A stretch of 47,708 nt of DNA from Pseudomonadota bacterium (GCA_043718025.1 JAYSWN010000194.1:1-47708); one strand, 5' to 3'. Counted from the stretch's first letter, positions 35,073 through 47,593 are shown. A program made the numbers and translations. Notes: generated from the letters alone by a model not told the origin.

Positions 35073-38000
35073 TCAGTGAAAGTCGTGCGATTGGTTTCGT
35101 AGGTTGGAGGCCGGGATTAGGCGCTCCGCTCCATCGACAATGACATGGGTGACGTTGGTGCCCTGCGTTTTTTCTACGCGCCCCTTCACGCGCAGCAGCG
35201 CCTCGTTCGACATCAGCTCTCGGTACTTTTCAAAAACCTTTCTCCAGATCACCAGGTTAATGAAGCCCAGTTCATCTTCTAGGGTGATAAAGAGGACGCC
35301 CTTGGCGGTGGGGGGCATCTGCCGGCAGATGACCAGCCCCGCGGTTTCGACGCGAGAGAGTCCCTTCTTTTCGAGCAACTGCTTTGAGTCCAAGACCTTC
35401 TCGGCCTTTAAAAAGTCACGAAAACAGCTCATCGGATGAGCGGTGAGAGAAACGCCCTTAGCGCTGTAATCTAAGGCCACACTTTCCCATTTGGTTTCGA
35501 GCGGCAGCTCTAGCTTTTCTTCATGCGGAGAAAACGGCTCGCTATCTTGAATGAAGGCCCCTTGAATTTGCCACATGGCTTCCCGTCGGTTCAAACCGTA
35601 GCTGCAAAAGGCATCGGCGCCGGCCAGTAAAAAAAGGTCGCGCTTTTTCAGTGGGTCAGGGGCGATTTCGGTTTTCAAATTTTCAAAGAGCGAGAAAAGC
35701 GTGGTGGCGTTAAGGCGGGCCTTTTCTACCGCCCGGCCCACCTTTTCAGTTAAGCCCCGCACTTCGCGAAAACCCATGCGCACTTCGTTGCGGCGTTCAA
35801 CAAAATGATCCCAGGTAGAAAGTTTGGCGTCGAGGGGTAGCATCACCACGCCGTGGTTCACGGCGTCGTACACCAGCGTGCTGGTCTGATAAAAGCCCAT
35901 AGGCTGGGCATTTAAAATGCCGACCAGGTAGCAGTCGGGGTAATAGTAGCGAAGGTAGGCGCTGGCGTAAGCCAGCAGCGCAAAAGAGGCGGCGTGGCTT
36001 TCGGGAAAACCATATTCGGCAAAGCCTTCGATCTGTTGAAACACGCGATCGGCAAACTCTTGGGAAATGCCGCGGGCCATGAGACCCGTCTTAAATTTTT
36101 CGCCCAGCGGCGATAGGCGGTTGCCGCCGTGATTTCGCCACGTGCCCATGGCGCGCCTGAGTTCATCGGCCTCTCCGGCGCTAAAGCCCGCCACCCTCAT
36201 GGCCATTTTCATGATCTGCTCTTGAAACAGCGGCACTCCGTAAGTCTTTTTTAAAATCGCCTCTAATTCGGGGTGGGGGTAGGTGACTTTTTCTAAACCC
36301 GCTCGTCTCCTTAGGTAAGGGTGAACCATTTCGCCTTGAATGGGGCCGGGGCGCACCAGCGCCACCTCCACCACCAGATCGTAAAATACTTTGGGCTGAA
36401 GGCGAGGCAACATGTTCATCTGCGCGCGTGATTCAATTTGAAACACGCCGATGGTGTCGCCGGTGGCAATCTGCGCGTACACTTTAGGGTCTTCGGCCGG
36501 AATGGAGGCTAGGGTCAGCGTGATGCCGCGGCTCTTTTCAACTTGCGAAAAAGTTTTTCGAAGGCAGGTCAAAATGCCTAATCCTAAAATGTCTACCTTC
36601 ACCAGGTTTAAGGTGTCGAGATCGTCTTTGTTCCATTGAATGATGGTGCGGTCTTTCATCGCGGCTTTCTCCACCGGAACCAAGTGGGTGAGCTTGTCTT
36701 GACACAGAATAAAGCCACCGACGTGAGTGCCTAAATGGCGGGGGAAACCCGAAATCTCATCGGCAAGCTCTAGGTATTTGGGTAAGAGTTCAGCCGGCAT
36801 GCGATCGTGAAGTTGCTGTCTTTCGGCCGGCTTTAACGGGTCGAGCTTTAGATCACGGCGGTGAGTGAGGGTCTGAATGGTGTCAATCGCGGCCGACGGT
36901 ACGCCAAACACCTTGCCCACTTCACGCAGGGCCGAACGGCGGCGAAAGCAAATGGTGTTGGCGGTAATGGCGGCGCGATCGCGGCCGTAGCGTCGGTAAA
37001 TGTACTGAATCACCTCTTCGCGTCGCTCGTGCTCAAAATCAATGTCAATGTCGGGCGGCTCTTTGCGTTCACGTGAAACAAAACGTTCGAAAAGTAAATT
37101 CATGCGCACTGGATCGATGGCGGTGATGCCTAAAAAATAACAGACCACCGAGTTGGCGGCTGAGCCGCGCCCCTGAAATAAGATCTTCTCCCTCTGCGCA
37201 AACTGAATGATGTCCCAGATGGTGAGAAAGTAATGGCCGTAATCAAGCTCGCTTATCAACCCTAACTCGTGTTCTACCTGTTTTTTTACGTCGGCGGGAA
37301 CGCCGTTAGGGTAACGAAATAGCGCCCCCTGCCACGTTAGCTTTTGCAAAAAACTACTTTGCGTTTCTCCCGGCGGCAGCCACTCGTCTGGGTAGCGGTA
37401 ATGCAGTTCATTTAGGGAGAATAGGCAGCGCTCCGAAATTTCTTTGGTGCGCGAAATCCATTCTGGAAAATCATGAAACAGCTCGGCTACGGTGTGGGGA
37501 GATTTTAAATGGCGCTCGTCGTTAGGCAGCAGTTTAAAGCCGGCTTGGTCTAGTGTGCAGTTGTGGTGAATACAGGTGAGCACGTCTTGTAAGGCTTTGC
37601 GGTGAGGCGTGTGGTAGAGCGGCTCTAAGCTTGCGATCAATGGGATGTTTAAGCGCGTGCTGGCGGCTTGGGCCTTTTTAATTCGCGCGCCGTCGCTGCC
37701 TTCTGCGTAGAGAGTGGCGCTGAGGTAAATACGGCCGTCGTAGGCTTCGCGCAAATCCGGCGGGCAATCGTAAGGGTAGGGGAGAATTAAGCTGAGCCCT
37801 TCATTATTTTCGGCGGCCACGTTCCAGGCGAGGCGCGGGTCATCGCGCTCCTCGTGTGCGAGTGTGAGCGACTCTCCCAAATTGGCGTACCCTTTTTTGT
37901 TTTCGGCTAAGAAGCAGAGTCGTTGCCCGGTGGGGGATAGCGTTTCGGCGCCAACGATAAGTCGCGCGCCTTTTAATTTTTCGGCGGCCTGATGCGCTTG

Positions 38001-38168
38001 CGGTAAACCGTAAACTCCATGGCGGTCGACCAGCGCAATGGCACGGTAGCCCAACGCCGTTGCGCTGTGGATCATTTCGCTGGGATGAGAGGCCCCGTGC
38101 AAAAAAGAAAAGCACGTCTTGGCGAGCAACTCGACAAAATCACTTCGTAGCCGAGGGTGCGCCGTCAT
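35073..38168 (-). CDS. dnaE2: error-prone DNA polymerase DnaE2 (ImuC)
   Basis: FSFLHGASHP, GRGSAANS, PPDIDIDFEH, GFPESHA and C-terminal SHDFH. Confidence 0.97.
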   Translation of the reverse strand: MTAHPRLRSDFVELLAKTCFSFLHGASHPSEMIHSATALGYRAIALVDRHGVYGLPQAHQAAEKLKGARLIVGAETLSPTGQRLCFLAENKKGYANLGESLTLAHEERDDPRLAWNVAAENNEGLSLILPYPYDCPPDLREAYDGRIYLSATLYAEGSDGARIKKAQAASTRLNIPLIASLEPLYHTPHRKALQDVLTCIHHNCTLDQAGFKLLPNDERHLKSPHTVAELFHDFPEWISRTKEISERCLFSLNELHYRYPDEWLPPGETQSSFLQKLTWQGALFRYPNGVPADVKKQVEHELGLISELDYGHYFLTIWDIIQFAQREKILFQGRGSAANSVVCYFLGITAIDPVRMNLLFERFVSRERKEPPDIDIDFEHERREEVIQYIYRRYGRDRAAITANTICFRRRSALREVGKVFGVPSAAIDTIQTLTHRRDLKLDPLKPAERQQLHDRMPAELLPKYLELADEISGFPRHLGTHVGGFILCQDKLTHLVPVEKAAMKDRTIIQWNKDDLDTLNLVKVDILGLGILTCLRKTFSQVEKSRGITLTLASIPAEDPKVYAQIATGDTIGVFQIESRAQMNMLPRLQPKVFYDLVVEVALVRPGPIQGEMVHPYLRRRAGLEKVTYPHPELEAILKKTYGVPLFQEQIMKMAMRVAGFSAGEADELRRAMGTWRNHGGNRLSPLGEKFKTGLMARGISQEFADRVFQQIEGFAEYGFPESHAASFALLAYASAYLRYYYPDCYLVGILNAQPMGFYQTSTLVYDAVNHGVVMLPLDAKLSTWDHFVERRNEVRMGFREVRGLTEKVGRAVEKARLNATTLFSLFENLKTEIAPDPLKKRDLFLLAGADAFCSYGLNRREAMWQIQGAFIQDSEPFSPHEEKLELPLETKWESVALDYSAKGVSLTAHPMSCFRDFLKAEKVLDSKQLLEKKGLSRVETAGLVICRQMPPTAKGVLFITLEDELGFINLVIWRKVFEKYRELMSNEALLRVKGRVEKTQGTNVTHVIVDGAERLIPASNLRNQSHDFH

Positions 38169-38189
38169 TTTGTTAGTTCCCTGATTTCC

Positions 38190-38303
38190 AAAGGTGCCCA
38201 TCTACTTTTCAGCTGAAAAGGTCGCGGGTGCATCTCACAGTTTTGCACCTGGCACCTTTTCAGCTGAAAAGTAGATGGGCACCTTTTTGGGCACCTTTTT
38301 GGG
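38190..38303. repeat. REP/MITE-like element with 33-bp perfect inverted repeats
   Basis: 38190-38222 is the exact reverse complement of 38254-38286; each arm holds the palindrome CTTTTCAGCTGAAAAG; tandem GGGCACCTTTTT x2 at the right end. Confidence 0.85.
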
Positions 38304-39542
38304 TTAGCAGAATTCGCCATGTAGGTACCACTGGTCTTGGGTTTGAAAGAGCCATAATTTTTCGTCGTTGGGGCCGTGGGCCAAATAGTATTGTCGTGGT
38401 GGCTCGCCGCTCCACCAGCTGGTGGTGAGCTTCTCGGTGGGGGTCAGCCGCCACACCGCCGCGTTAAAGACAAAAGGTCTGGGTGAAAAAAGGTAAAGCG
38501 GCCGGGCCGGATAGAAGTCGCGCTTCTTTAGTGGCAGCACCGGCTGCGAAACCATCTCCCAGGTGCATTCCGGTAGGTGGCTCTCTTTTAGTTTGATGAA
38601 GCCCGCTTTGTCTTGCCCCAGCCTGTGGCGTAGCCGTTCTAGATAAGTTTGCAGGTCTTGTTGCCTGGTTTCGTCGTCGTCAAAAAGGTGTAGCTGGCGT
38701 GAACCCTGGGCAATGGCGTCGGTCACCTCCACGCCCACTTTTCTTAGTGGCGAATCCCACTTCAGCCCATTGACCCACTCCGAAAAAAGTTTAAGCAAAG
38801 CGGCGGAGTTGCGCGATGGTTCGGTAAGAAAAAGATCTTTTCGCTTAGTGCCACTCTCCAAACGAAAGGTGAAGGTGATTTTTTTGGCCAGTGCTGCGCG
38901 CCCTAATAGCCGCGCTTCCATTTTATTGAGCGTGCTGTTCATGAGGTAGATGAGACTCTCTTGGCTGGATGCCTCTTCGGCATCTAACGATTCCACCAGC
39001 CGGTGGTCGGGTTCAAATATTCGTAAGCAGAGCGGCCGTTGGCCCAGCACCATGTCGTGGAGAGGCAGTATGCCTTTGCCAAAACGGCGTACTACCGCAT
39101 CATTAGGTAGCCGGGCAAAATCACCCACCGTGTTTAATCCCACCCGTTTCATGAATAGAATGAGCTTCTCCCGCAGCGGTTTTTCTTCTTCCAGCTTTTG
39201 CGGGTCGCCGCAGGTGAGCAGGGCCGTAAGCCCTTTGGCGAAAAGGGCGGCTTGGCTCTGCCCTTCGGGTAGAATCAAAAGGCGACGGGCTCCGGGAGAG
39301 AGTGCGGCACCCCACTCTGGCTTATCGACCACCACCCCTTCAAAGGGAATTTCATTTTCGTAGAGCGCGCGCAGGGCTTCGAAACGGGCCATCCAGCCTT
39401 CAAAACCGCCAAAATATTTTTCGGTGGCGGTGATCTCCAGATACAGATGTACGCCCACACAAAACACCTTGGGGGTGAGCGCCAAGCAGGCTTCGGCAAA
39501 GTCTGGCCGAGGCTCGGCCAACATCAAATACAAAAATCGCAT
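38304..39542 (-). CDS. imuB: ImuB, inactive Y-family polymerase accessory subunit
   Basis: LYLEITAT, GLNTVGDF...RRFG, SHLPE, WW...RQYY and WYLHGEF; lies upstream of dnaE2. Confidence 0.85.
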   Translation of the reverse strand: MRFLYLMLAEPRPDFAEACLALTPKVFCVGVHLYLEITATEKYFGGFEGWMARFEALRALYENEIPFEGVVVDKPEWGAALSPGARRLLILPEGQSQAALFAKGLTALLTCGDPQKLEEEKPLREKLILFMKRVGLNTVGDFARLPNDAVVRRFGKGILPLHDMVLGQRPLCLRIFEPDHRLVESLDAEEASSQESLIYLMNSTLNKMEARLLGRAALAKKITFTFRLESGTKRKDLFLTEPSRNSAALLKLFSEWVNGLKWDSPLRKVGVEVTDAIAQGSRQLHLFDDDETRQQDLQTYLERLRHRLGQDKAGFIKLKESHLPECTWEMVSQPVLPLKKRDFYPARPLYLFSPRPFVFNAAVWRLTPTEKLTTSWWSGEPPRQYYLAHGPNDEKLWLFQTQDQWYLHGEFC

Positions 39543-39568
39543 AGAGCAACCATCCGCTTAGGCCAGTT

Positions 39569-40258
39569 TTAACTTCCAAAGGAAAAGCGAAATAACCAGT
39601 GCGGCAAGGGCCGTGAGCACAAGATGAAGGTCCGGCAGTTTACTTTTTCGGACGCCAGTTGAAGCTTGCGTAAGAAGCTGGGTTCGCACCCTTCAGAAAC
39701 TTTGATAAAGGCCCACCGGAACAGGCCGGTTTGAATCGACTCTAGACCCGTACGCCACACCTCGCGAGGCGTGGGCGGGTAGGCCACAATTAAATTTTGT
39801 AGCGGAAAGCATTCGAGCTGATGGAACGCCTCTGCATTTAAGGTTCCCGTATCCGAAACCCACACCGCGTACTCTTTGGCCTCTTTCCAAGCAGGCCTGT
39901 GGGGGGGAAGAGGAGCAGAGTGCAAGAGTCTAACCATGGACTCTGCTCCTCGGGGGGAACCAGATTGCGCCAGGCCACCTTTTTCCATCCACTGCAACGA
40001 CCGGTGCAGAAAGGCTGACGTGGCAGCGTCGCCTTTGCCTTCAGCATCCTTGACTGAAGGGGAGGTGGCCTGGGGCTTAGCAAGAAAAGAAAGCCCCTTT
40101 AAATTTTTGAGACGCTGCGCTTGGCTAACCTTAGCTAGAGGAAGGGAAAGGGGGAGAGCGACCAACTCTCCCCCTCCGGTCCTTACTTCTTTGCCATCGG
40201 CTGTGTCTGCCGATTGAAGCTCCGGGTGAGAGCTTTTTGATTGGCAACTACGTCTCAT
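39569..40258 (-). CDS. imuA: ImuA-like degenerate RecA-fold protein
   Basis: RKLQLASEK and AVWVS, no Walker A; first gene of the cassette. Start chosen from the promoter position. Confidence 0.7.
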   Translation of the reverse strand: MRRSCQSKSSHPELQSADTADGKEVRTGGGELVALPLSLPLAKVSQAQRLKNLKGLSFLAKPQATSPSVKDAEGKGDAATSAFLHRSLQWMEKGGLAQSGSPRGAESMVRLLHSAPLPPHRPAWKEAKEYAVWVSDTGTLNAEAFHQLECFPLQNLIVAYPPTPREVWRTGLESIQTGLFRWAFIKVSEGCEPSFLRKLQLASEKVNCRTFILCSRPLPHWLFRFSFGS

Positions 40259-40265
40259 TTCCAAT

Positions 40266-40283
40266 ACCATACATGTGTATGGT
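40266..40283. promoter_or_regulatory. palindromic operator, candidate LexA box, over the imuA -10 element
   Basis: ACCATACA-TG-TGTATGGT; minus-strand TAGATC-N17-TATGGT-N7-ATG. Confidence 0.65.
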
Positions 40284-40453
40284 TCATCGATCTAGCCCCT
40301 ATGAGTCAAGTTTTCTTAAAAATAAGCGCCAAGCTCGGTTTCTCTTGCCTGACTTGCTTCTTCAAGAGAGCCCCGCTTTGGTACTCATCCCCAGGAGGTC
40401 CCTTTTTCGACGGCTACTGAAGGCGGGCGAGTTTATTTTTTTCTTCCGCTTTC

Positions 40454-40482
40454 TAGACAGCGAAGTGCGCCGTGATTAATCT
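40454..40482 (+). promoter_or_regulatory. sigma70-like promoter of lexA
   Basis: TAGACA (40454-40459), N17, TAATCT (40477-40482), then 7 nt before the ATG. Confidence 0.6.
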
Positions 40483-40489
40483 TTTTAAT

Positions 40490-41107
40490 ATGGAATCAAG
40501 GCAACCGCTCACCTCGGCCCAGGCGGAGGTTTATAAGTACATCAAACAGTGTTGCGCCGAGGGACAACCGCCGTCCTACCGCGAAATTCAAAATCACCTG
40601 GGTTATAAAGCCGTGGGCACCGTTCAAGACCACATCAAAGCGTTGGTAAAAAAAGGGTGGCTTGAAAAAAATGAATTAAAAAAAACGGGTAGAAAAGCGC
40701 GCGGCCTAATGCCAATAGGGCAGCGCCCCGCCAACGCCAAGTCGATTCCTATCTACGGAGAAATCGCCGCCGGCTCTTTGCGCGACAATCCACAGGTTGA
40801 GCTAGGGCAGCTGCCGGTGGCCGGAGATTGGGTGAAGGGCGAAAGCTTTGCCCTCAGGGTAACGGGAAATAGCATGATCGAGGTGGGCATCTTCGAGGGT
40901 GATTTTGTTATCGTGGCCCGCAGCGTAGCGATAAAGAGCGGCGATATTGTCGTGGCGTTGTACTGTGGCGAAACCACCGTCAAAACCTATGAAAGAAGAA
41001 AAGACGGTATCTATTTAGTTCCGCAAAACCCAACCATGAAGGCCTTTAAAATTGATGGCCCTTTTGAGCTTCAGGGAAAAGTGGTTGGCCTGCAGCGACG
41101 GTTCTAA
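40490..41107 (+). CDS. lexA: LexA repressor
   Basis: PPSYREI winged HTH, IAAG cleavage site, GNSM and TVK catalytic dyad. Confidence 0.95.
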   Translation: MESRQPLTSAQAEVYKYIKQCCAEGQPPSYREIQNHLGYKAVGTVQDHIKALVKKGWLEKNELKKTGRKARGLMPIGQRPANAKSIPIYGEIAAGSLRDNPQVELGQLPVAGDWVKGESFALRVTGNSMIEVGIFEGDFVIVARSVAIKSGDIVVALYCGETTVKTYERRKDGIYLVPQNPTMKAFKIDGPFELQGKVVGLQRRF

Positions 41108-41160: not shown

Positions 41161-41179
41161 TGCGGGAGGGGGCAGGGTG

Positions 41180-41749
41180 ATGAGCAAAGGGCGACTAGAA
41201 GCATTTAGCGATGGAGTGATCGCCATTATTCTCACCATCATGGTGTTAGAATTAAAAGTTCCGCACGCACCCGACATCGCCGCTCTAAAGCCACTGATGC
41301 CCGTGTTTTTGAGCTACGTGATGAGTTTTGTGTTCATCAGCATCTACTGGAACAACCATCACCATTTATTGCAAACCGTAAAGTCTGTGAACGGCGCGGC
41401 CCTTTGGGCCAATGCCCACTTACTTTTCTGGCTCTCCCTTATTCCTTTTACCACCGGGTGGATGGGCGAAAATGATTTTCCACCGTGGCCGGTAGCGATG
41501 TACGGAGTGGTTCTGTTCTTTTGCGGAGTGGCTTACTACCTCTTAACTCACACTCTCATTGCTCATCATGGCAAGCGCTCAGACTTAGCCATGGCAGTGG
41601 GCCGCGATGTAAAAGGTATTCTCTCGCTAGTGATTTACGTCGTCGCCATTCCCTTTGCCTTCATTAACTCTTGGGTCTCTTACTCCCTTTACGCAGCGGT
41701 TGCCTTAATTTGGTTCATTCCCGATCGGCGACTAGAAAAGAAGCATTAG
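41180..41749 (+). CDS. TMEM175 family K+ channel (DUF1211)
   Basis: RLEAFSDGVIAIILTIMVL and YWNNHH. Confidence 0.95.
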   Translation: MSKGRLEAFSDGVIAIILTIMVLELKVPHAPDIAALKPLMPVFLSYVMSFVFISIYWNNHHHLLQTVKSVNGAALWANAHLLFWLSLIPFTTGWMGENDFPPWPVAMYGVVLFFCGVAYYLLTHTLIAHHGKRSDLAMAVGRDVKGILSLVIYVVAIPFAFINSWVSYSLYAAVALIWFIPDRRLEKKH

Positions 41750-41817: not shown

Positions 41818-42519
41818 ATGCGGTATCTGTTCATAATTCTGCTGTTGTCGGCTCCGCTAATCGCTGCGCCTTTTAAACTCATTGCGCTTAGCACAGAAAA
41901 AGAGCTTCTCCCCGACGCCAGCGGGACAACCACGGTCACCACTACGACTTATCAGGTTGAAAATTCACCGTACGAAATGATGGTAAAAGTTATCGAACGC
42001 AAACAAACACAAATAATCGAAACCAGAGTTTACCGTGGGGCTCAACGGCAAAAAAAAGCCGCGTTCAGCCGCTCGTTCGTGGATTTAAAAAGAGGGCAGC
42101 CCGAATTGGGAACGGTTGGCCAGTACGTTAAATGGGAGCAAGAACAGAATGGCGACGGCGTCGGCAAAGGGTTGGGAGAATTGGTGCTACAACCGCTGCT
42201 TCAACTCTCTTCGCTAAAATCGATCACCGCCGAATTGGGGATCTCCAACACCGCGGAAATGAGGAGGGCTTTAGTAGAGCAAGGGCGCGTCGAGAGCAAC
42301 GCTGATTTTAGCCATGTGGTGATGGATCATAGTCATTTTGGCCGAACGCTTGCCACCTATGGTTTTGCCGTGGACCCGTTAAAGACCAGTCTCGATAAGT
42401 TGCGCGGTGATGCTGTCTTCAGTTTTAATCGAGTGGCCGCTACAAAACCCGATAGGGGGTGCTGGAAGTTTTTGCCCAGTTTCTCTTCCCTTGGCCACGA
42501 GAATACGCTCGTACAATAA
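41818..42519 (+). CDS. secreted hypothetical protein
   Basis: Signal MRYLFIILLLSAPLIA; GVGKGLG motif, possibly GNAT-like. Confidence 0.65.
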   Translation: MRYLFIILLLSAPLIAAPFKLIALSTEKELLPDASGTTTVTTTTYQVENSPYEMMVKVIERKQTQIIETRVYRGAQRQKKAAFSRSFVDLKRGQPELGTVGQYVKWEQEQNGDGVGKGLGELVLQPLLQLSSLKSITAELGISNTAEMRRALVEQGRVESNADFSHVVMDHSHFGRTLATYGFAVDPLKTSLDKLRGDAVFSFNRVAATKPDRGCWKFLPSFSSLGHENTLVQ

Positions 42520-42553
42520 AGAAGAGTGGGGCCTTTTATGCCCCACCCTTCTT
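42519..42553. terminator. probable bidirectional terminator
   Basis: AAGAAG-a-GTGGGGC-loop-GCCCCAC-c-CTTCTT between convergent genes. Confidence 0.7.
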
Positions 42554-45500
42554 AATTTCTGACGTCTCCAATGAGCTTTGAACACGTCTCCACTGCCGCT
42601 ACCGCTTGATCGCTCACTACGCCTACTCCAGCACCAAATTGTTTCTGCAGCCCTTCTATAAGCTGTTTAAAGTCATCGGCGAAAAGCAGCGTGGGAAAGG
42701 TTCCCCAGAAACTCGCCCAGCTATAAAGAAAGGCGTAGAAGGCCATGTCCTTTACCCCGCCCATCGCTTGCAGCCCCTGCATACGGAAAAATCGAGTGAG
42801 CCACTGCGCCGGGCTCACCACGGTGAAACGTGTCAACATCGCCAAAATCCAAATTGGTACGGGTAGTGACACCCCCCACACCAGGTAATTAAACCAATAA
42901 ACCGAAGTCCCCATGGTGATGGCGGCGCGGTAAGTACGCAAATTTCCGATCCAAAAATCGTACAGCCCGGGCACGTTTCGCATCACTGCCGAAGTCAGGC
43001 CGGTTTTGTGGTGTTCTATGGGGAAAAACGAATCTAGGGTTCGCCAAAATCGCGTGCGCGTGCGCGACGTTCGGTTTACCAGCTTTTGGCGACGCCATTG
43101 AAAGCGGCCAGGCTGTACGGTGGATAGCGCGGCCTCTGCGTAGTGCTTTCTTAATTCTTTTTTCTCCGCCTTCGTTGCCGTAACCGGATTGTATGGCGTG
43201 CCACCGTTTGCCGCCATAAATGCTTTTTGAGCTTCGGCGTCGACGATATTAGGAACGATGTCGCGATACGCGGCAATGATGTTTTCGGCGTAAAGGTTTG
43301 CCGTGAATTGCACTCGATCCGCCTCGGTAAGTTCGGCAAGGTGGGATTTAAGTTTAATGTCGCTCAGCTGCCCATCCGTCAGCAATTTGGCTTTTTCCTC
43401 AATGCGCTCTTTCAGCGTCTCGCCGGGATTCGGATGGGGAAAGGCCGCGGCCGCATCGGCTAAGGCAATTCGATAAATTTCGTCCCACAAACGGCTGTCT
43501 TCTTCCGTTTTATTAGGAGCAAATTCGTAGCCGTGATCTGACAAAAACTTTTCGTTCGAAAGTCTCACCAGCTCTGCCCTAATCTTTTCGTCTCTTAGCA
43601 TGAGGGCCTCTTTATCAACGCTTTGAGCTGATGACTCCCCTCCATTGTAATCAGGATAGATGCCAACTTGATTCATCAACGATGCCGCGTATGCGTCGGT
43701 CCACAGCTTGATGTCGGCGGGTGAAGCTACGCTCACATCGAATACGGCCCCTTTGGCCTCCGCGTATTTACGATCGGCAACGGTTCTGGCCCGTCGTTGT
43801 TGCATTCTTCCGTACCAACTGGTGCGCGGCAGCTTATAGGGGGTGACCGCGTCCACATCGGCCAAAGCTCGGGTGTGAATCTTTTCGTCCATGATGAGGC
43901 GAAATTCAGCGCGGTGGTTGTGGCGCAGATCGCGCAGGGTTTTTTCGGCGTCCCCTTGGTGCTGGCCAATAATAAGTTCGTATTCGGTAGAGTAGCGAGT
44001 TCTCAAGATCAGAAGCGCCTCTTTTTCAAAGTCAGGGTGCAACGCTTCAGTGGCTTGAAAGTGATTTTTGGTGGGGCCGAGGTAGACTTCAGCCTCTCCG
44101 GAGAGAGTGCCCGAAAATGCCCGGCGAAAAATCTGGCCAGCCACTTGGCAGCCTGGCTCTTTGTATTTCTCTCCCCAAGCTCCGGGTATAAATTTAAGCC
44201 CTTCGGAAACCGGGCCGTCGTAGGTTAAGGCCACCAAAGTTTGGCGGGCCCGGCGCATGCGCGAAAGCAAATCGGCGACACCGGGTGGACTCTTGCCGGT
44301 TAGTTTTCCCCAGACCCACTTCATCGGCAATTTTACAAAATTACTGGTTACGGACAGATCGGCCACCACCTCTTCGAGAATCGCCACCGCGCTTACCAAA
44401 GATCGGTCGCCCGGATCGTTTTTCAGTCGGCCTTTGGCCTCTTTGAGCGCGGCATTTAAGGCAGGCACGATGGCTCCCGGCCGATGTTCGGCTAAGAAAC
44501 CGCTACCCAATGCCAGCCCCGGAACCGAACCGGTAAGTTTATTGCCCAATAGTTGATGGCCCATTGACCAGATTGTGGAGGCATCGAACAAAAAGTCTTC
44601 TTTACCGGGCAAGCCCACCTGTTTAGCGACGAGTGCGAACAGCTCTTCGAACTTTTTATCGCGTACGGTTTTCACTTCGGCGGAGTGCGGATCAAGGCCT
44701 AATTTACGCAGCTCTGAGTCTACTTCGGGCCCAAGCACCGTAATCAGTTGTGCCTTAAGATCGGCGCTTACCATCGAGGCGCCCTGGCTGGTGTAGGCGG
44801 CCAGATTTCGCGCGGTTTCATTTCGGTTAAACGTTTCGACGTCGGGGTTGTTTAAATCAAATGCGGCGTTCAATTTTTCTTGCATGCTAGGAAAGGCCCC
44901 GGCGATGCCTTCGACCATCCACGGCACCACAAAATAGACTTGCAGCGCAACCAAGGCGGTGTCGGTGAAACCCATCGGCCCAATTCCCAACGCGGCGGTG
45001 CGCCAGTTCACGGGAATATTTTCGGTCATGTCGCGCGCTTGATATACGGTTTGATTTAAAAAACGGCGGAGCAGGGTGTTTTTTCCGGCGCCAAGTTTGG
45101 TGAAATAGCGATCAACGATGTATTCCACCGAATTGCCCAGCCAGTTACCGGGAATAGTGGCGAGAAAAGTGAGGTTGTGGGCGAACACGTCTCCCGTATT
45201 TCTCACCTCTTGCGTCAATCGACCCCACAAACCGCGAGCCGGCTCGGCGCCATTTTTTTTGCCAAAACGCTCGCGATACACCGTGTAGCGCAAGACTACG
45301 GCGGCAATCAGCGACAGGCCGACAATGGCCCCCACCCGAATTAAATTTTTAACCAGTTTTTGGTCCGGACTGTCTTCTGCATAGGCCGTGGCGCCAAAGA
45401 CGAAAGCAAAGGCCTTGTCGATGAACGGAAGCATCGAGGTCAAAGACGGGCCAGTAAATAGATTGAGTTCGGGATGTTTAAGATTCAGCCCCGTAAACAG

Positions 45501-46379
45501 CATGCCAAAACCCGCGGTAGAACCGGGTAAGGGAAGGGTGGCTAAGGTGTCGTCAGCAACTAACGCCTTTGATCGGGCGGCTGAGCCCAAAGACAGCAGC
45601 AGGTTGATTTTTTCGGCAAAGACCACCTTTTCGATGTCTGACTCACTAATCGGAAGCGTGTCGCCTTCGGCATCGGTCATCATCACGGTATCGGTAAATC
45701 CCACGGTGTCGACGTCGACATTACCGGTCCAATTTCCGCCCGGCAGGGGGAAGAAAAAAACCGGAACCCGATCTTGCGCCTTTTTTGCCGCAAAAAGTTC
45801 GGTGATAGAAATTAAGAAAATACCTTCACCCGCCGGCTCGTCCGGTGACTTGGCTTGGAATAGATCTTCGGATTGAGCGGCCAAGTAGATCCATTGGTCG
45901 TCGGTTGATAGTGGACGCAAGGGCGCTTGTAGCCGGAAGACTCTCGACGTCCCTTTCAGGGCGATGTCGAGCGAGTTTCCCTTTTGACGAAAGGCAATGT
46001 GATCTTGGTCGGCGTCGCCGGGTTCCGTAGTGATCTCGGCCTGAGACCAGCTCTGTGATCGCAAAAAGAACGGATCCGAATCTAGCGCCGGATCACCGGC
46101 TTTTAATCCCATCGTAAACGGGATTTCGGGCATGTCGGTAAGCACTTCCACAATTGGGGGGGCGAGCAGCGCGGCCACTTCGGGACTTAATTTTACTAGG
46201 CGGGGGACGGCTTTAAAATTGGCGTCAAGATTTGTGCGGTTGGCCGTGCGGGCGACCGGAAACACGGGAGCTTTAGGAGACTCGGCCCGAAGGGTACGGT
46301 AGCCCATCGGCGGTAGCATCAGCTCGAAAAACACAAGAAATAGAATAGCCTTAGTCGATAAAGACGGCTTTAATTTCAA
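42552..46379 (-). CDS. large (1275 aa) secreted or membrane hypothetical protein
   Basis: Uninterrupted ORF, TTG start after GGGGGA, signal-like N-terminus, two clusters of hydrophobic helices. Confidence 0.8.
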   Translation of the reverse strand: MKLKPSLSTKAILFLVFFELMLPPMGYRTLRAESPKAPVFPVARTANRTNLDANFKAVPRLVKLSPEVAALLAPPIVEVLTDMPEIPFTMGLKAGDPALDSDPFFLRSQSWSQAEITTEPGDADQDHIAFRQKGNSLDIALKGTSRVFRLQAPLRPLSTDDQWIYLAAQSEDLFQAKSPDEPAGEGIFLISITELFAAKKAQDRVPVFFFPLPGGNWTGNVDVDTVGFTDTVMMTDAEGDTLPISESDIEKVVFAEKINLLLSLGSAARSKALVADDTLATLPLPGSTAGFGMLFTGLNLKHPELNLFTGPSLTSMLPFIDKAFAFVFGATAYAEDSPDQKLVKNLIRVGAIVGLSLIAAVVLRYTVYRERFGKKNGAEPARGLWGRLTQEVRNTGDVFAHNLTFLATIPGNWLGNSVEYIVDRYFTKLGAGKNTLLRRFLNQTVYQARDMTENIPVNWRTAALGIGPMGFTDTALVALQVYFVVPWMVEGIAGAFPSMQEKLNAAFDLNNPDVETFNRNETARNLAAYTSQGASMVSADLKAQLITVLGPEVDSELRKLGLDPHSAEVKTVRDKKFEELFALVAKQVGLPGKEDFLFDASTIWSMGHQLLGNKLTGSVPGLALGSGFLAEHRPGAIVPALNAALKEAKGRLKNDPGDRSLVSAVAILEEVVADLSVTSNFVKLPMKWVWGKLTGKSPPGVADLLSRMRRARQTLVALTYDGPVSEGLKFIPGAWGEKYKEPGCQVAGQIFRRAFSGTLSGEAEVYLGPTKNHFQATEALHPDFEKEALLILRTRYSTEYELIIGQHQGDAEKTLRDLRHNHRAEFRLIMDEKIHTRALADVDAVTPYKLPRTSWYGRMQQRRARTVADRKYAEAKGAVFDVSVASPADIKLWTDAYAASLMNQVGIYPDYNGGESSAQSVDKEALMLRDEKIRAELVRLSNEKFLSDHGYEFAPNKTEEDSRLWDEIYRIALADAAAAFPHPNPGETLKERIEEKAKLLTDGQLSDIKLKSHLAELTEADRVQFTANLYAENIIAAYRDIVPNIVDAEAQKAFMAANGGTPYNPVTATKAEKKELRKHYAEAALSTVQPGRFQWRRQKLVNRTSRTRTRFWRTLDSFFPIEHHKTGLTSAVMRNVPGLYDFWIGNLRTYRAAITMGTSVYWFNYLVWGVSLPVPIWILAMLTRFTVVSPAQWLTRFFRMQGLQAMGGVKDMAFYAFLYSWASFWGTFPTLLFADDFKQLIEGLQKQFGAGVGVVSDQAVAAVETCSKLIGDVRN

Positions 46380-46489
46380 TCACTTCCCCCTGCACCCAAT
46401 TCTGCAATTGAAAAACCTAGCATGAGTTTATACGAAGTGTCATGAAATGCTTCAGTGTGTTATAGAAAAAAGACAAGACGGGGGGCAAA

Positions 46490-47593
46490 ATGATCAGAGG
46501 TTTTCAGTCTGCATCAGCAACTTCTTCTCCAAATTCGCTTCGGGTTTGGCCGGCCGCGCTTTTTTTACTTCTCGTTTGTTTTGGGGTGAGGGCAGAAAAT
46601 GGGCCCTTTGGTGTTCCCACCTATAGAGACTACCAAAGCCTTTCTCAATCGGAGCGCGCCGCCTACGAGAAACGCCTAGACGAGTTAAGTTTTCCCAGTT
46701 TCGTCTTAAAAAGCCACTTTCAGAGCGCGAGCTATTTTGCCACGCCAGAAGGTGCACTCGAGTTTCGCCGGGTGGCCCATCTCCTTAATAAAGATTTGGA
46801 ACAGTACGGGCGGTTGGTCTCAATCGGGAGATCGGGTACGGGCCTATTGGCCTATGTTTCCGGATTTACTAAGGGAGGAAAAAAAAATGCACTTACGGAC
46901 CTTCCCTTTTCCTATCCCGATAAGTGGAATGCGATTACCGACGAGCAGCATGCGGGTTTACGTCGGCATCTAACGAGAAACGGTCTTGATCCTCAGTCGA
47001 TCGCCGCTGCTGAATTGCCAATTTTATTTTATGATTTTGTCTATTCGGGAGGCAGCGCTTACAAACTGCTGCTGGAGATCCACACTTGGGCCAAGGAATT
47101 AAAAATCGTGGCAAAAGTGAAAAAGAAAATTCATTTCATCGGTTTTTTTCCGGCCGAGACTAAAGCCCGTGAAATTCTTTTTTCCCTGCACTATCAAACC
47201 ATAAAAGAATTTGGGGGCAGTTATAAGCCGGAACCGCCGTCCGAGAAGTACATTTCGGAGCAGGCTACGGGGCTTACGTCCTCAAGTTTTTCAGATATTC
47301 AGAAGATCGTGGATAAAGCCTCCGAGCCCCACGTTCTTTCAAGTTTCTACAATTACCTCGGCACCCACGGACCCAATGCCCATGAAAGCCTTAGGCCCGA
47401 AAAGTGGACTACCGATGTCTCTCTCCTGCCCCCCAATTCCCTAAAAGGGCAGGCGGCGAGTGATGGTCACCTTGAGCTCTACTACCTTTTTAAAGAGGGT
47501 GAGCTCGACGCTTTAGGGGGCTGCCAGCGGTGGGTGGAAAAACCCGCGGCCGCCGCTTTTGTTCCAGCTTCCTCGCGGCCTCGCGCAGATTAG
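46490..47593 (+). CDS. secreted hypothetical protein with a PRTase-like motif
   Basis: Signal ending VRA-E; SIGRSG and LFYDFVYSGGS. Confidence 0.65.
   Translation: MIRGFQSASATSSPNSLRVWPAALFLLLVCFGVRAENGPFGVPTYRDYQSLSQSERAAYEKRLDELSFPSFVLKSHFQSASYFATPEGALEFRRVAHLLNKDLEQYGRLVSIGRSGTGLLAYVSGFTKGGKKNALTDLPFSYPDKWNAITDEQHAGLRRHLTRNGLDPQSIAAAELPILFYDFVYSGGSAYKLLLEIHTWAKELKIVAKVKKKIHFIGFFPAETKAREILFSLHYQTIKEFGGSYKPEPPSEKYISEQATGLTSSSFSDIQKIVDKASEPHVLSSFYNYLGTHGPNAHESLRPEKWTTDVSLLPPNSLKGQAASDGHLELYYLFKEGELDALGGCQRWVEKPAAAAFVPASSRPRAD

Follow-up and report, generated by a model that had tools for sequence, protein, structure and literature searches.

What could three neighbouring, mutually unrelated genes for predicted secreted proteins have in common, when the only visible thread between them is a cysteine close to the C-terminus? 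This question is raised by one end of the window (i.e., the whole stretch of 47,708 nucleotides analysed here, JAYSWN010000194.1 of assembly GCA_043718025.1, recorded as Pseudomonadota bacterium), which is contig C106 of a 4.14 Mb, 92% complete genome designated G000. The three open reading frames (ORF1, ORF2 and ORF3) carry Cys codons at 42460 (context GCWKFL), 42584 (TCSKLI) and 47522 (GCQRWV), each near the C-terminus, and a preliminary description saw in them a Cys-x-x-hydrophobic-hydrophobic motif, proposed as a C-terminal sorting, secretion or lipidation signal on an effector-like cluster. The positions and contexts are confirmed, and the idea that effector-like exported proteins bear a Cys signal at their termini is supported by genome-wide enrichment, conservation and presence on cytoplasmic-type enzymes; the motif as formulated, its restriction to the C-terminus and the cluster are not. 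The SecA protein of G000 is 75% identical to that of an uncultured Pseudobdellovibrionaceae record and 58% identical to that of Bdellovibrio sp. HCB-162, and from such comparisons the organism likely belongs to Bdellovibrionota, yet far from Bdellovibrio.

A cysteine tag at either end of exported proteins

Genes of G000 were called with a purpose-written hexamer gene caller (3731 genes, 89% coding) and signal peptides were predicted by our own heuristic, complemented by homologues for ORF1 to ORF3; "export" throughout denotes a predicted Sec signal. We compared 723 signal-peptide proteins with 1790 cytoplasmic ones, lipobox proteins being classed apart and the tagged class being defined among proteins without a transmembrane segment. 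The signal peptides claimed for all three window proteins are supported by the heuristic together with the homologues, with the reservation that for ORF2 and ORF3 the automatic caller did not find the true start, for which reason both are absent from the signal-peptide counts.

In the last 30 amino acids (aa), Cys-x-x-hydrophobic-hydrophobic is no more frequent in signal-peptide proteins (21/723) than in cytoplasmic ones (51/1790, Fisher p=1.0) and shuffled sequences give a mean of 15.2, with 17 of 200 shuffles reaching 21; among the lipoproteins and membrane proteins of G000 there was likewise no enrichment. It fails because the informative positions, as seen in position profiles, are +4, +7 and +11 rather than +3, the latter showing no genome-wide preference for hydrophobic residues (p=0.85) and being hydrophobic in 5 of 27 tails of the ORF3 family. 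The actual motif (hereafter, the tag) is C-x-x-x-[L/F] at either end of the mature chain. Leu or Phe occupies +4 of a lone terminal Cys in 57% of cases at the N end (n = 35) and 56% at the C end (n = 27), compared with 11% of 798 internal Cys, and the overall count of 40 was reached by none of 200 shuffles (mean 21.7). Signal-peptide proteins with a lone Cys bear the tag 20 times at the N end and 15 times at the C end (ca. 1.9 expected each), so that placement is clearly not exclusively C-terminal, while cytoplasmic lone-Cys controls gave 8 vs 5.9 expected at the C end and 11 vs 5.7 at the N end, the last figure probably including missed signal peptides. The excess extends to proteins with several Cys, i.e., 50 tags vs 6.8 expected in signal-peptide proteins with an odd number of Cys and 37 vs 9.0 in those with an even number, from which ca. 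70 of the 723 bear the tag (excess of ca. 43 odd-Cys plus ca. 28 even-Cys). Counted by class, odd-Cys tagged proteins number 62/723 among signal-peptide proteins (14.2 expected) and 102/1790 among cytoplasmic ones (93.0 expected).

To describe its anatomy, 60 tags were set against 1072 internal Cys with a hydrophobic residue at +4. Leu at +4 (42/60 vs 379/1072), a hydrophobic residue at +7 (33/60 vs 361/1072), a higher hydrophobic moment (0.37 vs 0.31, p=0.001) and Pro in the upstream linker (13% vs 4%) all distinguish the tags, and the periodicity points to a probable short amphipathic helix, preceded by a linker rich in Pro. In the AlphaFold models the tag shows no helix, and the tails of ORF1 and ORF3 are unstructured. 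A hidden Markov model (HMM) of the tag recovered 0-1 held-out tags at E<=1 and was abandoned for genome-wide profiling; the degeneracy of the tag puts it beyond profile HMMs and may explain why it had escaped the models of Pfam and NCBIfam. Tagged genes are also not gathered in one place, as the idea of a single effector cluster would have it: 11 of 84 lie within two genes of another, compared with 7.9 expected (p=0.2).

The window genes, their families and the tagged cargo

ORF1 (41818..42519, + strand) encodes 233 aa with a predicted signal peptide at ca. aa 1-17 and a disordered tail in which the tag C-W-K-F-L (42460..42474, + strand) places the sole Cys of the protein 19 aa from the end. 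Its AlphaFold model (predicted local distance difference test, pLDDT, 63; residues 208-233 below 50) retrieved mostly GNATs as top Foldseek rows (all E>=0.006, none E<=0.001), and the VIA structure comparison, run on the same pLDDT 63 model, gave Z<=7.6, again mostly GNATs. It is thus likely a divergent GNAT-like acetyltransferase fold, as modelled, with a resemblance below significance. Although a protein database search yielded no homologue other than itself, the congener G001 holds one that is 31% identical, with a lone Cys in the tail and Phe at +4.

On the opposite strand, ORF2 (42552..46379, - strand) starts at a TTG behind a purine-rich ribosome site and encodes a 1275-aa orphan. Its tag C-S-K-L-I (42570..42584, - strand) holds Cys1266, 10 aa from the end, which is invariant in all six family members, including a 30%-identical one whose linker is ca. 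65 aa longer. The one further Cys that had been noted is Cys744 (44148..44150, - strand), kept in just two of the six, which leaves Cys1266 of the tag as the sole conserved one in ORF2. The search for relatives gave no Pfam, NCBIfam or usable ESM Atlas match, no PDB sequence match below E 0.06 and no relative in a named genome. Three hydrophobic segments (ca. aa 342, 475 and 1165) are consistent with what is possibly a membrane-inserting cargo. The signal peptide (46319-46379) is atypical: the four family members that cover it all have Glu or Gln inside the hydrophobic stretch, with prolines following, and another large exported protein in the congener G002 has a signal of the same type.

Divergent from ORF2, an arrangement retained in the congeners G001 and G003, lies ORF3 (46490..47593, + strand; 367 aa), with a long n-region in its signal peptide, cleavage predicted after ca. 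aa 35, and a disordered tail with the tag C-Q-R-W-V (47522..47536, + strand) 23 aa from the end. As had been claimed for both ORF1 and ORF3, the tag Cys is the sole Cys of the mature chain, the second Cys of ORF3 (Cys30) falling within the predicted signal peptide. The AlphaFold model (pLDDT 80.5; residues 345-367 below 50) matches 8a0c (Z 12.6, root-mean-square deviation 3.9, 206 residues aligned) and 7shg (Z 10.8), the next row standing at 6.6, and a conserved hydrophobic-D-F-V-Y-S-G stretch resembles the loop that binds phosphoribosyl pyrophosphate (PRPP); Foldseek gave no match at E<=0.001. We consider ORF3 to have a phosphoribosyltransferase-like fold, judged from the model, nearest to PRPP-using glycan ribosyltransferase domains, and its activity is a prediction.

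That the three proteins are orphans was confirmed: none has a Pfam match (E<=0.05) or a credible NCBIfam match (a single E=0.04 row for ORF1 lies far below its cut-off). Directly upstream of ORF1 is a gene for a TMEM175-family potassium channel (41177-41749), preceded by lexA, divergent from an imuA-like/imuB-like/dnaE2-like run (35073-41107), i.e., an SOS mutagenesis cassette, in which LexA and IMS_C domains are matched in Pfam and the dnaE2 and imuA labels are our reading of the sequence.

Homologues keep the Cys in all three cases (the ORF1 homologue, 1/1; ORF2, 6/6; close ORF3 relatives, 28/31), and the family of ORF3 is the most instructive. Searching with a profile of the ORF3 alignment produced 222 matches. 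The 150 listed, to which the counts below refer, comprise 31 close relatives, 117 distant ones (the division being made on score and coverage) and two short fragments that were left out. In the close tier, the Cys lies in the last 45 residues of those 28 members, a hydrophobic residue occupies +4 in 24/31 (Leu in 15), and the heuristic predicts a signal peptide in 17/31, while several of the remainder are N-terminal fragments. Two full-length close relatives without a tail Cys (P0029 and P0040) have the tag just after the signal peptide instead, and the third (P0038) appears N-terminally truncated. Distant relatives, one of them named from a Propionibacteriaceae bacterium, have a signal peptide in 3/117 cases and none in 114/117. 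Given that close relatives are exported and tagged and distant ones are mostly signal-less, a cytoplasmic family appears to have gained both a signal peptide and a tag at one end or the other. Elsewhere in G000, an exported Clp-M41 fusion carries the tag at its C end in 6/6 sequences of family f1, from four genera, and a copy in G030 (family f4) also ends in it, making 7/7 copies in all. These signal-peptide proteins of 1300-1550 aa combine Clp-type AAA+ modules with an FtsH-like M41 protease domain (L192:1-4668 on G000 C36; L151:1911-5894 in G030), and to judge from their domains the fusion looks like a self-contained exported ATP-dependent protease.

What else is tagged was surveyed in 95 proteins of G000, i.e., 90 of 103 motif matches (13 without a credible signal peptide were dropped) plus five added by hand. 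Seventy-one have no Pfam match, and the 24 with a match are, in our classification, 12 cytoplasmic-type enzymes, five repeat or VWA proteins and seven ordinary envelope proteins, the last of which look like chance catches. The cytoplasmic-type group comprises two Clp AAA+ proteins, a helicase, two S-adenosylmethionine (SAM) methyltransferases, a GNAT, two ATP-grasp proteins, a polyketide synthase dehydratase, a NIF phosphatase, a ParB-like protein and an M20 protein. In a set of 73 cargo proteins, any one Pfam family had matches in two at most and any one NCBIfam family in one at most (the latter among the first 25 of 91 families by member count). With the rule fixed beforehand, position-picked samples of five relatives gave 14 tagged and 92 untagged signal-peptide proteins. 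The tagged ones with a Pfam match are two AAA ATPases, an ABC1 kinase, a 2H phosphoesterase and a RamC N-terminal domain, whereas the 37/92 untagged ones with a match belong nearly all to ordinary envelope families, with no NTPase or kinase among them (3/14 vs 0/92, p=0.002; 2/14 tagged, p=0.016, if the tagged set is judged by the same stricter cut-off as the untagged one).

It is here that the tag could be dismissed as a product of chance and of artefacts in the gene and signal-peptide heuristics, as the motif first proposed is not enriched, the present one was refined post hoc and false positives exist. We find this scarcely credible in view of the independent confirmation in three protein families and in the samples of relatives, and are highly confident that the signal is real.

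Distribution among relatives and candidate partners

Relatives were sampled in pieces of 120-200 kb, with 400 kb each for G041 (Bdellovibrio sp. HCB-162) and G036. Lone-Cys tags occur in 9/160 signal-peptide proteins from G007, G025, G026, G030, G034 and G037 (families f1, f2, f4, f8 and f11), some of them chance matches such as YajC, and in 0/178 from the G041 and G036 samples; this grouping into tag-positive and tag-negative genomes was drawn after the counts had been seen, so its p of 0.001 is descriptive only. Controls from outside the phylum gave 1/88 in SecA-flanking loci and 1/14 in a Geobacter sample, and 600 kb of G030 gave 5/71 tagged proteins vs 1.6 expected. The expectation that Bdellovibrio proper bears such motifs was not borne out, with no lone-Cys tag in 93 signal-peptide proteins from 400 kb of HCB-162. 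The small genomes of some tag-positive relatives (e.g., G030, 2.0 Mb), together with the WD40, HEAT or TPR repeats of some cargo, would suit an organism living in or on a eukaryote whose palmitoyl-transferases modify the tag after delivery. This appears very improbable, since most cargo folds are bacterial and one host-targeting signal on ca. 10% of exported proteins in five families is not to be expected.

If the tag were lipidated, an enzyme should follow its distribution. By this explanation some enzyme would S-acylate or diacylglycerylate the Cys, and helix and lipid together would hold the proteins on the outer membrane or on vesicles. A lone Cys next to an amphipathic segment is indeed typical of acylation sites, and the tag resembles them in this respect. 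The lipobox (Lgt/LspA) of lipoproteins is similar in its Cys near the mature N-terminus, as in about half of the tags, but the N-terminal tag Cys sits 2-28 residues past the predicted cleavage site behind polar spacers (a long one in the ClpA-like homologue of G002) and the motif is also found at C-termini; the N-terminal tag is thus not a lipobox, and lipobox proteins, classed apart, show no enrichment. Duplication of Lgt was considered as the cognate machine and rejected, as two paralogues are present in all five genomes compared (G000, G025, G034, G036 and G041), tag-positive or not. The CPBP protease (PF02517) fares no better, being present among the same five in G000, G025 and the tag-negative G036, and not found in G041 or in the tag-positive G034 (99% complete, its tag-positive status resting on one clear example). 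Surface display would moreover leave cargo dependent on ATP, CoA, SAM or PRPP unexplained. Cys-bearing sorting signals have been proposed to be lipidated (Haft, 10.1101/2023.06.07.544157, as far as the consulted part goes), and the MYXO-CTERM class described there is alike in having an invariant Cys in a short terminal signal, lineage-restricted, on many unrelated signal-peptide proteins per genome. As judged from that part, the tag differs in having no transmembrane helix (the window tails are 10-23 polar or amphipathic residues) and no Arg-rich C-terminal cluster (by inspection of the three window proteins and most tails listed), in standing at the N end no less often than at the C end, in not being tracked by CPBP and in marking cytoplasmic-type enzymes instead of surface proteins; NCBIfam models of the Cys-containing CTERM class had no match among the window proteins. 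Sortase-type C-terminal processing is not supported either, for want of a membrane helix, a basic tail and a CPBP protease that tracks the tag, and because N-terminal copies cannot be processed that way. Taken together, we regard lipidation as unlikely.

Among the machines that could carry tagged proteins, G000 encodes a type II secretion system (T2SS), type IVa pili, two Tad-like loci and an extra T2SS-like cluster, assignments that are partly our reading of the sequence. The extra cluster (G000 C175:6929-14277) comprises a secretin, GspF, a partial ATPase and a PilM-like protein, the canonical one being on C41. The major pseudopilin GspG (G000 C41:11027-11464 and L127:6751-7182) was rejected as disulfide partner because it has a single Cys in G000 and G026, whereas in the tag-positive G034 there is a different Cys pair; GspK has a Cys-rich C-terminal extension, and G034 differs. 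A DUF7910 protein adjoining a cargo gene was set aside too, as it occurs in just 9/41 genomes, and so was an order-wide membrane lipoprotein family (29/41 genomes, not found in G030, G034 and G037). The latter is an unannotated lipoprotein-like membrane protein, usually in two copies, seen in 28/29 genomes of the order and 1/12 outside it (L154:5860-7275 in G025; G000 C99:53951 and C101:2399). G030 also has a reduced flagellar export cluster (L145:4397-9699) with a short FlhA (517 aa frame) and a short FliF-like protein, possibly degenerate or repurposed.

A proposed docking signal for effector delivery

Motif, enrichment at both ends, conservation, the switch of ends in one family, addition together with a signal peptide to cytoplasmic-type enzymes and patchy distribution were computed directly. 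How they might fit together is suggested by the mature Cys counts of exported proteins, which favour even numbers (two in 159, three in 63, four in 94, five in 18; a single Cys in 136) and thus point to an oxidising envelope, where a conserved single Cys would probably bond to another molecule. As the motif is common to unrelated folds, movable between ends and set on a linker, its best interpretation is a peptide that docks onto a single partner. ATP, acetyl-CoA, SAM and PRPP are cytoplasmic, and enzymes needing them have no periplasmic use; from this need of the cargo we infer delivery into the cytoplasm of another cell. We therefore postulate, giving it an even chance, that the tag is a docking signal onto a shared, hypothetical envelope carrier, held by a disulfide, for delivering effectors into a prey or host cell. 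Some 70 unrelated proteins (with export predicted by the heuristic) would leave through Sec, each bearing its Cys-x-x-x-Leu/Phe tag at one end or the other, on a flexible linker; the tag would dock each cargo on the common carrier through its short helix and a disulfide; type II secretion and type IV or Tad pili would be default candidates for the outward step; and on arrival in the prey or host cytoplasm the disulfide would be reduced, freeing the cargo.

There is precedent for disulfide-tethered cargo that is freed by reduction (PMC6469816). In the consulted part of that source, AB toxins (CdtB-PltA of typhoid toxin) have an enzyme held to a delivery platform by one Cys that is reduced in the target, an analogy for the postulated mechanism only, given that one or two dedicated cargos there face ca. 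70 unrelated ones here, with no B subunit or sequence relation known. The target here is probably not an animal cell. With substrates of type II and type IX secretion systems the tagged proteins share a signal peptide plus a second targeting element; in Bacteroidota the type IX signal consists of a folded C-terminal domain, type II signals are conformational, and neither is a Cys helix at either end.

Several observations weigh against this docking and delivery proposal. All enrichment counts rest on our own gene and signal-peptide heuristics, the p-values from G000 are optimistic because the motif was refined on G000 itself, and the tag rule also picks up ordinary proteins (YajC, histidine kinases, HtrA, TolC and S46). 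In the distant ORF3 tier, 16 of the 117 listed relatives have a tail Cys with a hydrophobic +4, several as W-C-R-x-L, and from this pattern the ORF3 tag may derive from an ancestral helix. An exported Clp-like ATPase of G000 (C232:17703) has no tag. Its surrounding operon (C232:13151-22378) encodes VWA and Clp-like proteins with signal peptides and no terminal Cys tag, and is possibly a second export route. As for machinery, secretins are present in 41/41 genomes, the tag-negative G036 included, and PulE-type ATPases in tag-positive and tag-negative genomes alike, irrespective of the tag, so that no known machine tracks it; the co-occurring transporter or sortase-like gene that one might look for was accordingly not found among secretins, PulE-type ATPases, CPBP, Lgt and SctV/FlhA. 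No receptor or carrier candidate came from partial comparisons (ca. 30% of G030 and 4-8% of other relatives), and a carrier could lie in the rest of G030, of which ca. 600 of 2000 kb were sampled. FlhA/SctV (PF00771) had no match in G000 or its congeners G001-G003 (0/4) and is present in the other 21 sampled genomes of the family; the genus of G000 is likely non-flagellated and, with no such export gate and with predicted signal peptides on the cargo, a type III effector class was rejected. No route across the inner membrane of the prey was identified, and a predatory or parasitic lifestyle is itself something that we infer.

A further point on that side are the ca. 28 excess tags on even-Cys proteins, in which the tag Cys could pair within the molecule. 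Along with the 3/160 proteins tagged at both ends, they would suit a Cys that does no more than stabilise the protein bearing it, through a homodimer disulfide or an intramolecular bond to a second Cys, with no shared receptor. We hold this to be improbable, as the C-x-x-x-L pattern recurs on unrelated folds, monomer-type and ring-forming enzymes alike, swaps ends within the ORF3 family and is not seen in the G041 and G036 samples.

A shared receptor could also serve to package enzymes into an extracytoplasmic assembly made by the producer (scaffold, vesicle or condensate), with no delivery to another cell. The design is that of the encapsulation peptides of bacterial microcompartments (BMC), which, in the portion of PMC4594438 consulted, are short amphipathic helices on a variable linker at either terminus, with little or no sequence conservation, appended to enzymes whose relatives lack them and able to switch ends within a family. 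By the same portion, the present proteins differ in their predicted signal peptides, shorter tag, obligatory Cys and the absence of an implicated shell; tag enrichment is limited to signal-peptide proteins, unlike signal-less BMC cargo. The cargo makes up no pathway, cofactor supply outside the cytoplasm would be left unexplained, and partial genome comparisons, with no search aimed at BMC shell families, gave no shell or scaffold candidate. Packaging is thus somewhat less likely even than lipidation.

Returning to docking for delivery, the novelty lies in the signal itself, of which we found no description in the literature searched (subscription journals and supplements lay outside the search); it is not mentioned in the portions consulted of PMC2797640, PMC3526173, PMC10792529, PMC12419801, PMC12622784 and 10.1101/2023.11.21.568195. 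In the portion of a 2025 paper available to us (PMC12622784), secretion in B. bacteriovorus is termed largely unexplored. We tentatively suggest, at somewhat less than even confidence, that uncultured Bdellovibrionota widely use a two-step effector pathway, in which Sec export and clipping by a Cys helix would bring dozens of repurposed cytoplasmic enzymes (unfoldases, kinases, acetyl-, methyl- and ribosyl-transferases) onto a common carrier, with reductive release in the prey cytoplasm, and that HCB-162 lacks or has lost this pathway. Such a pathway would account for signal peptides on ATP-, CoA-, SAM- and PRPP-dependent folds, and it bears on how predatory or parasitic bacteria without type III secretion put enzymes into another cell. 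Since it marks about one-tenth of the exported proteome, the tag allows candidate effectors to be picked out by rule among orphan genes and can serve as bait in the search for the delivery machine; if the proposal is true, the effector repertoire of any such genome could simply be read from it.

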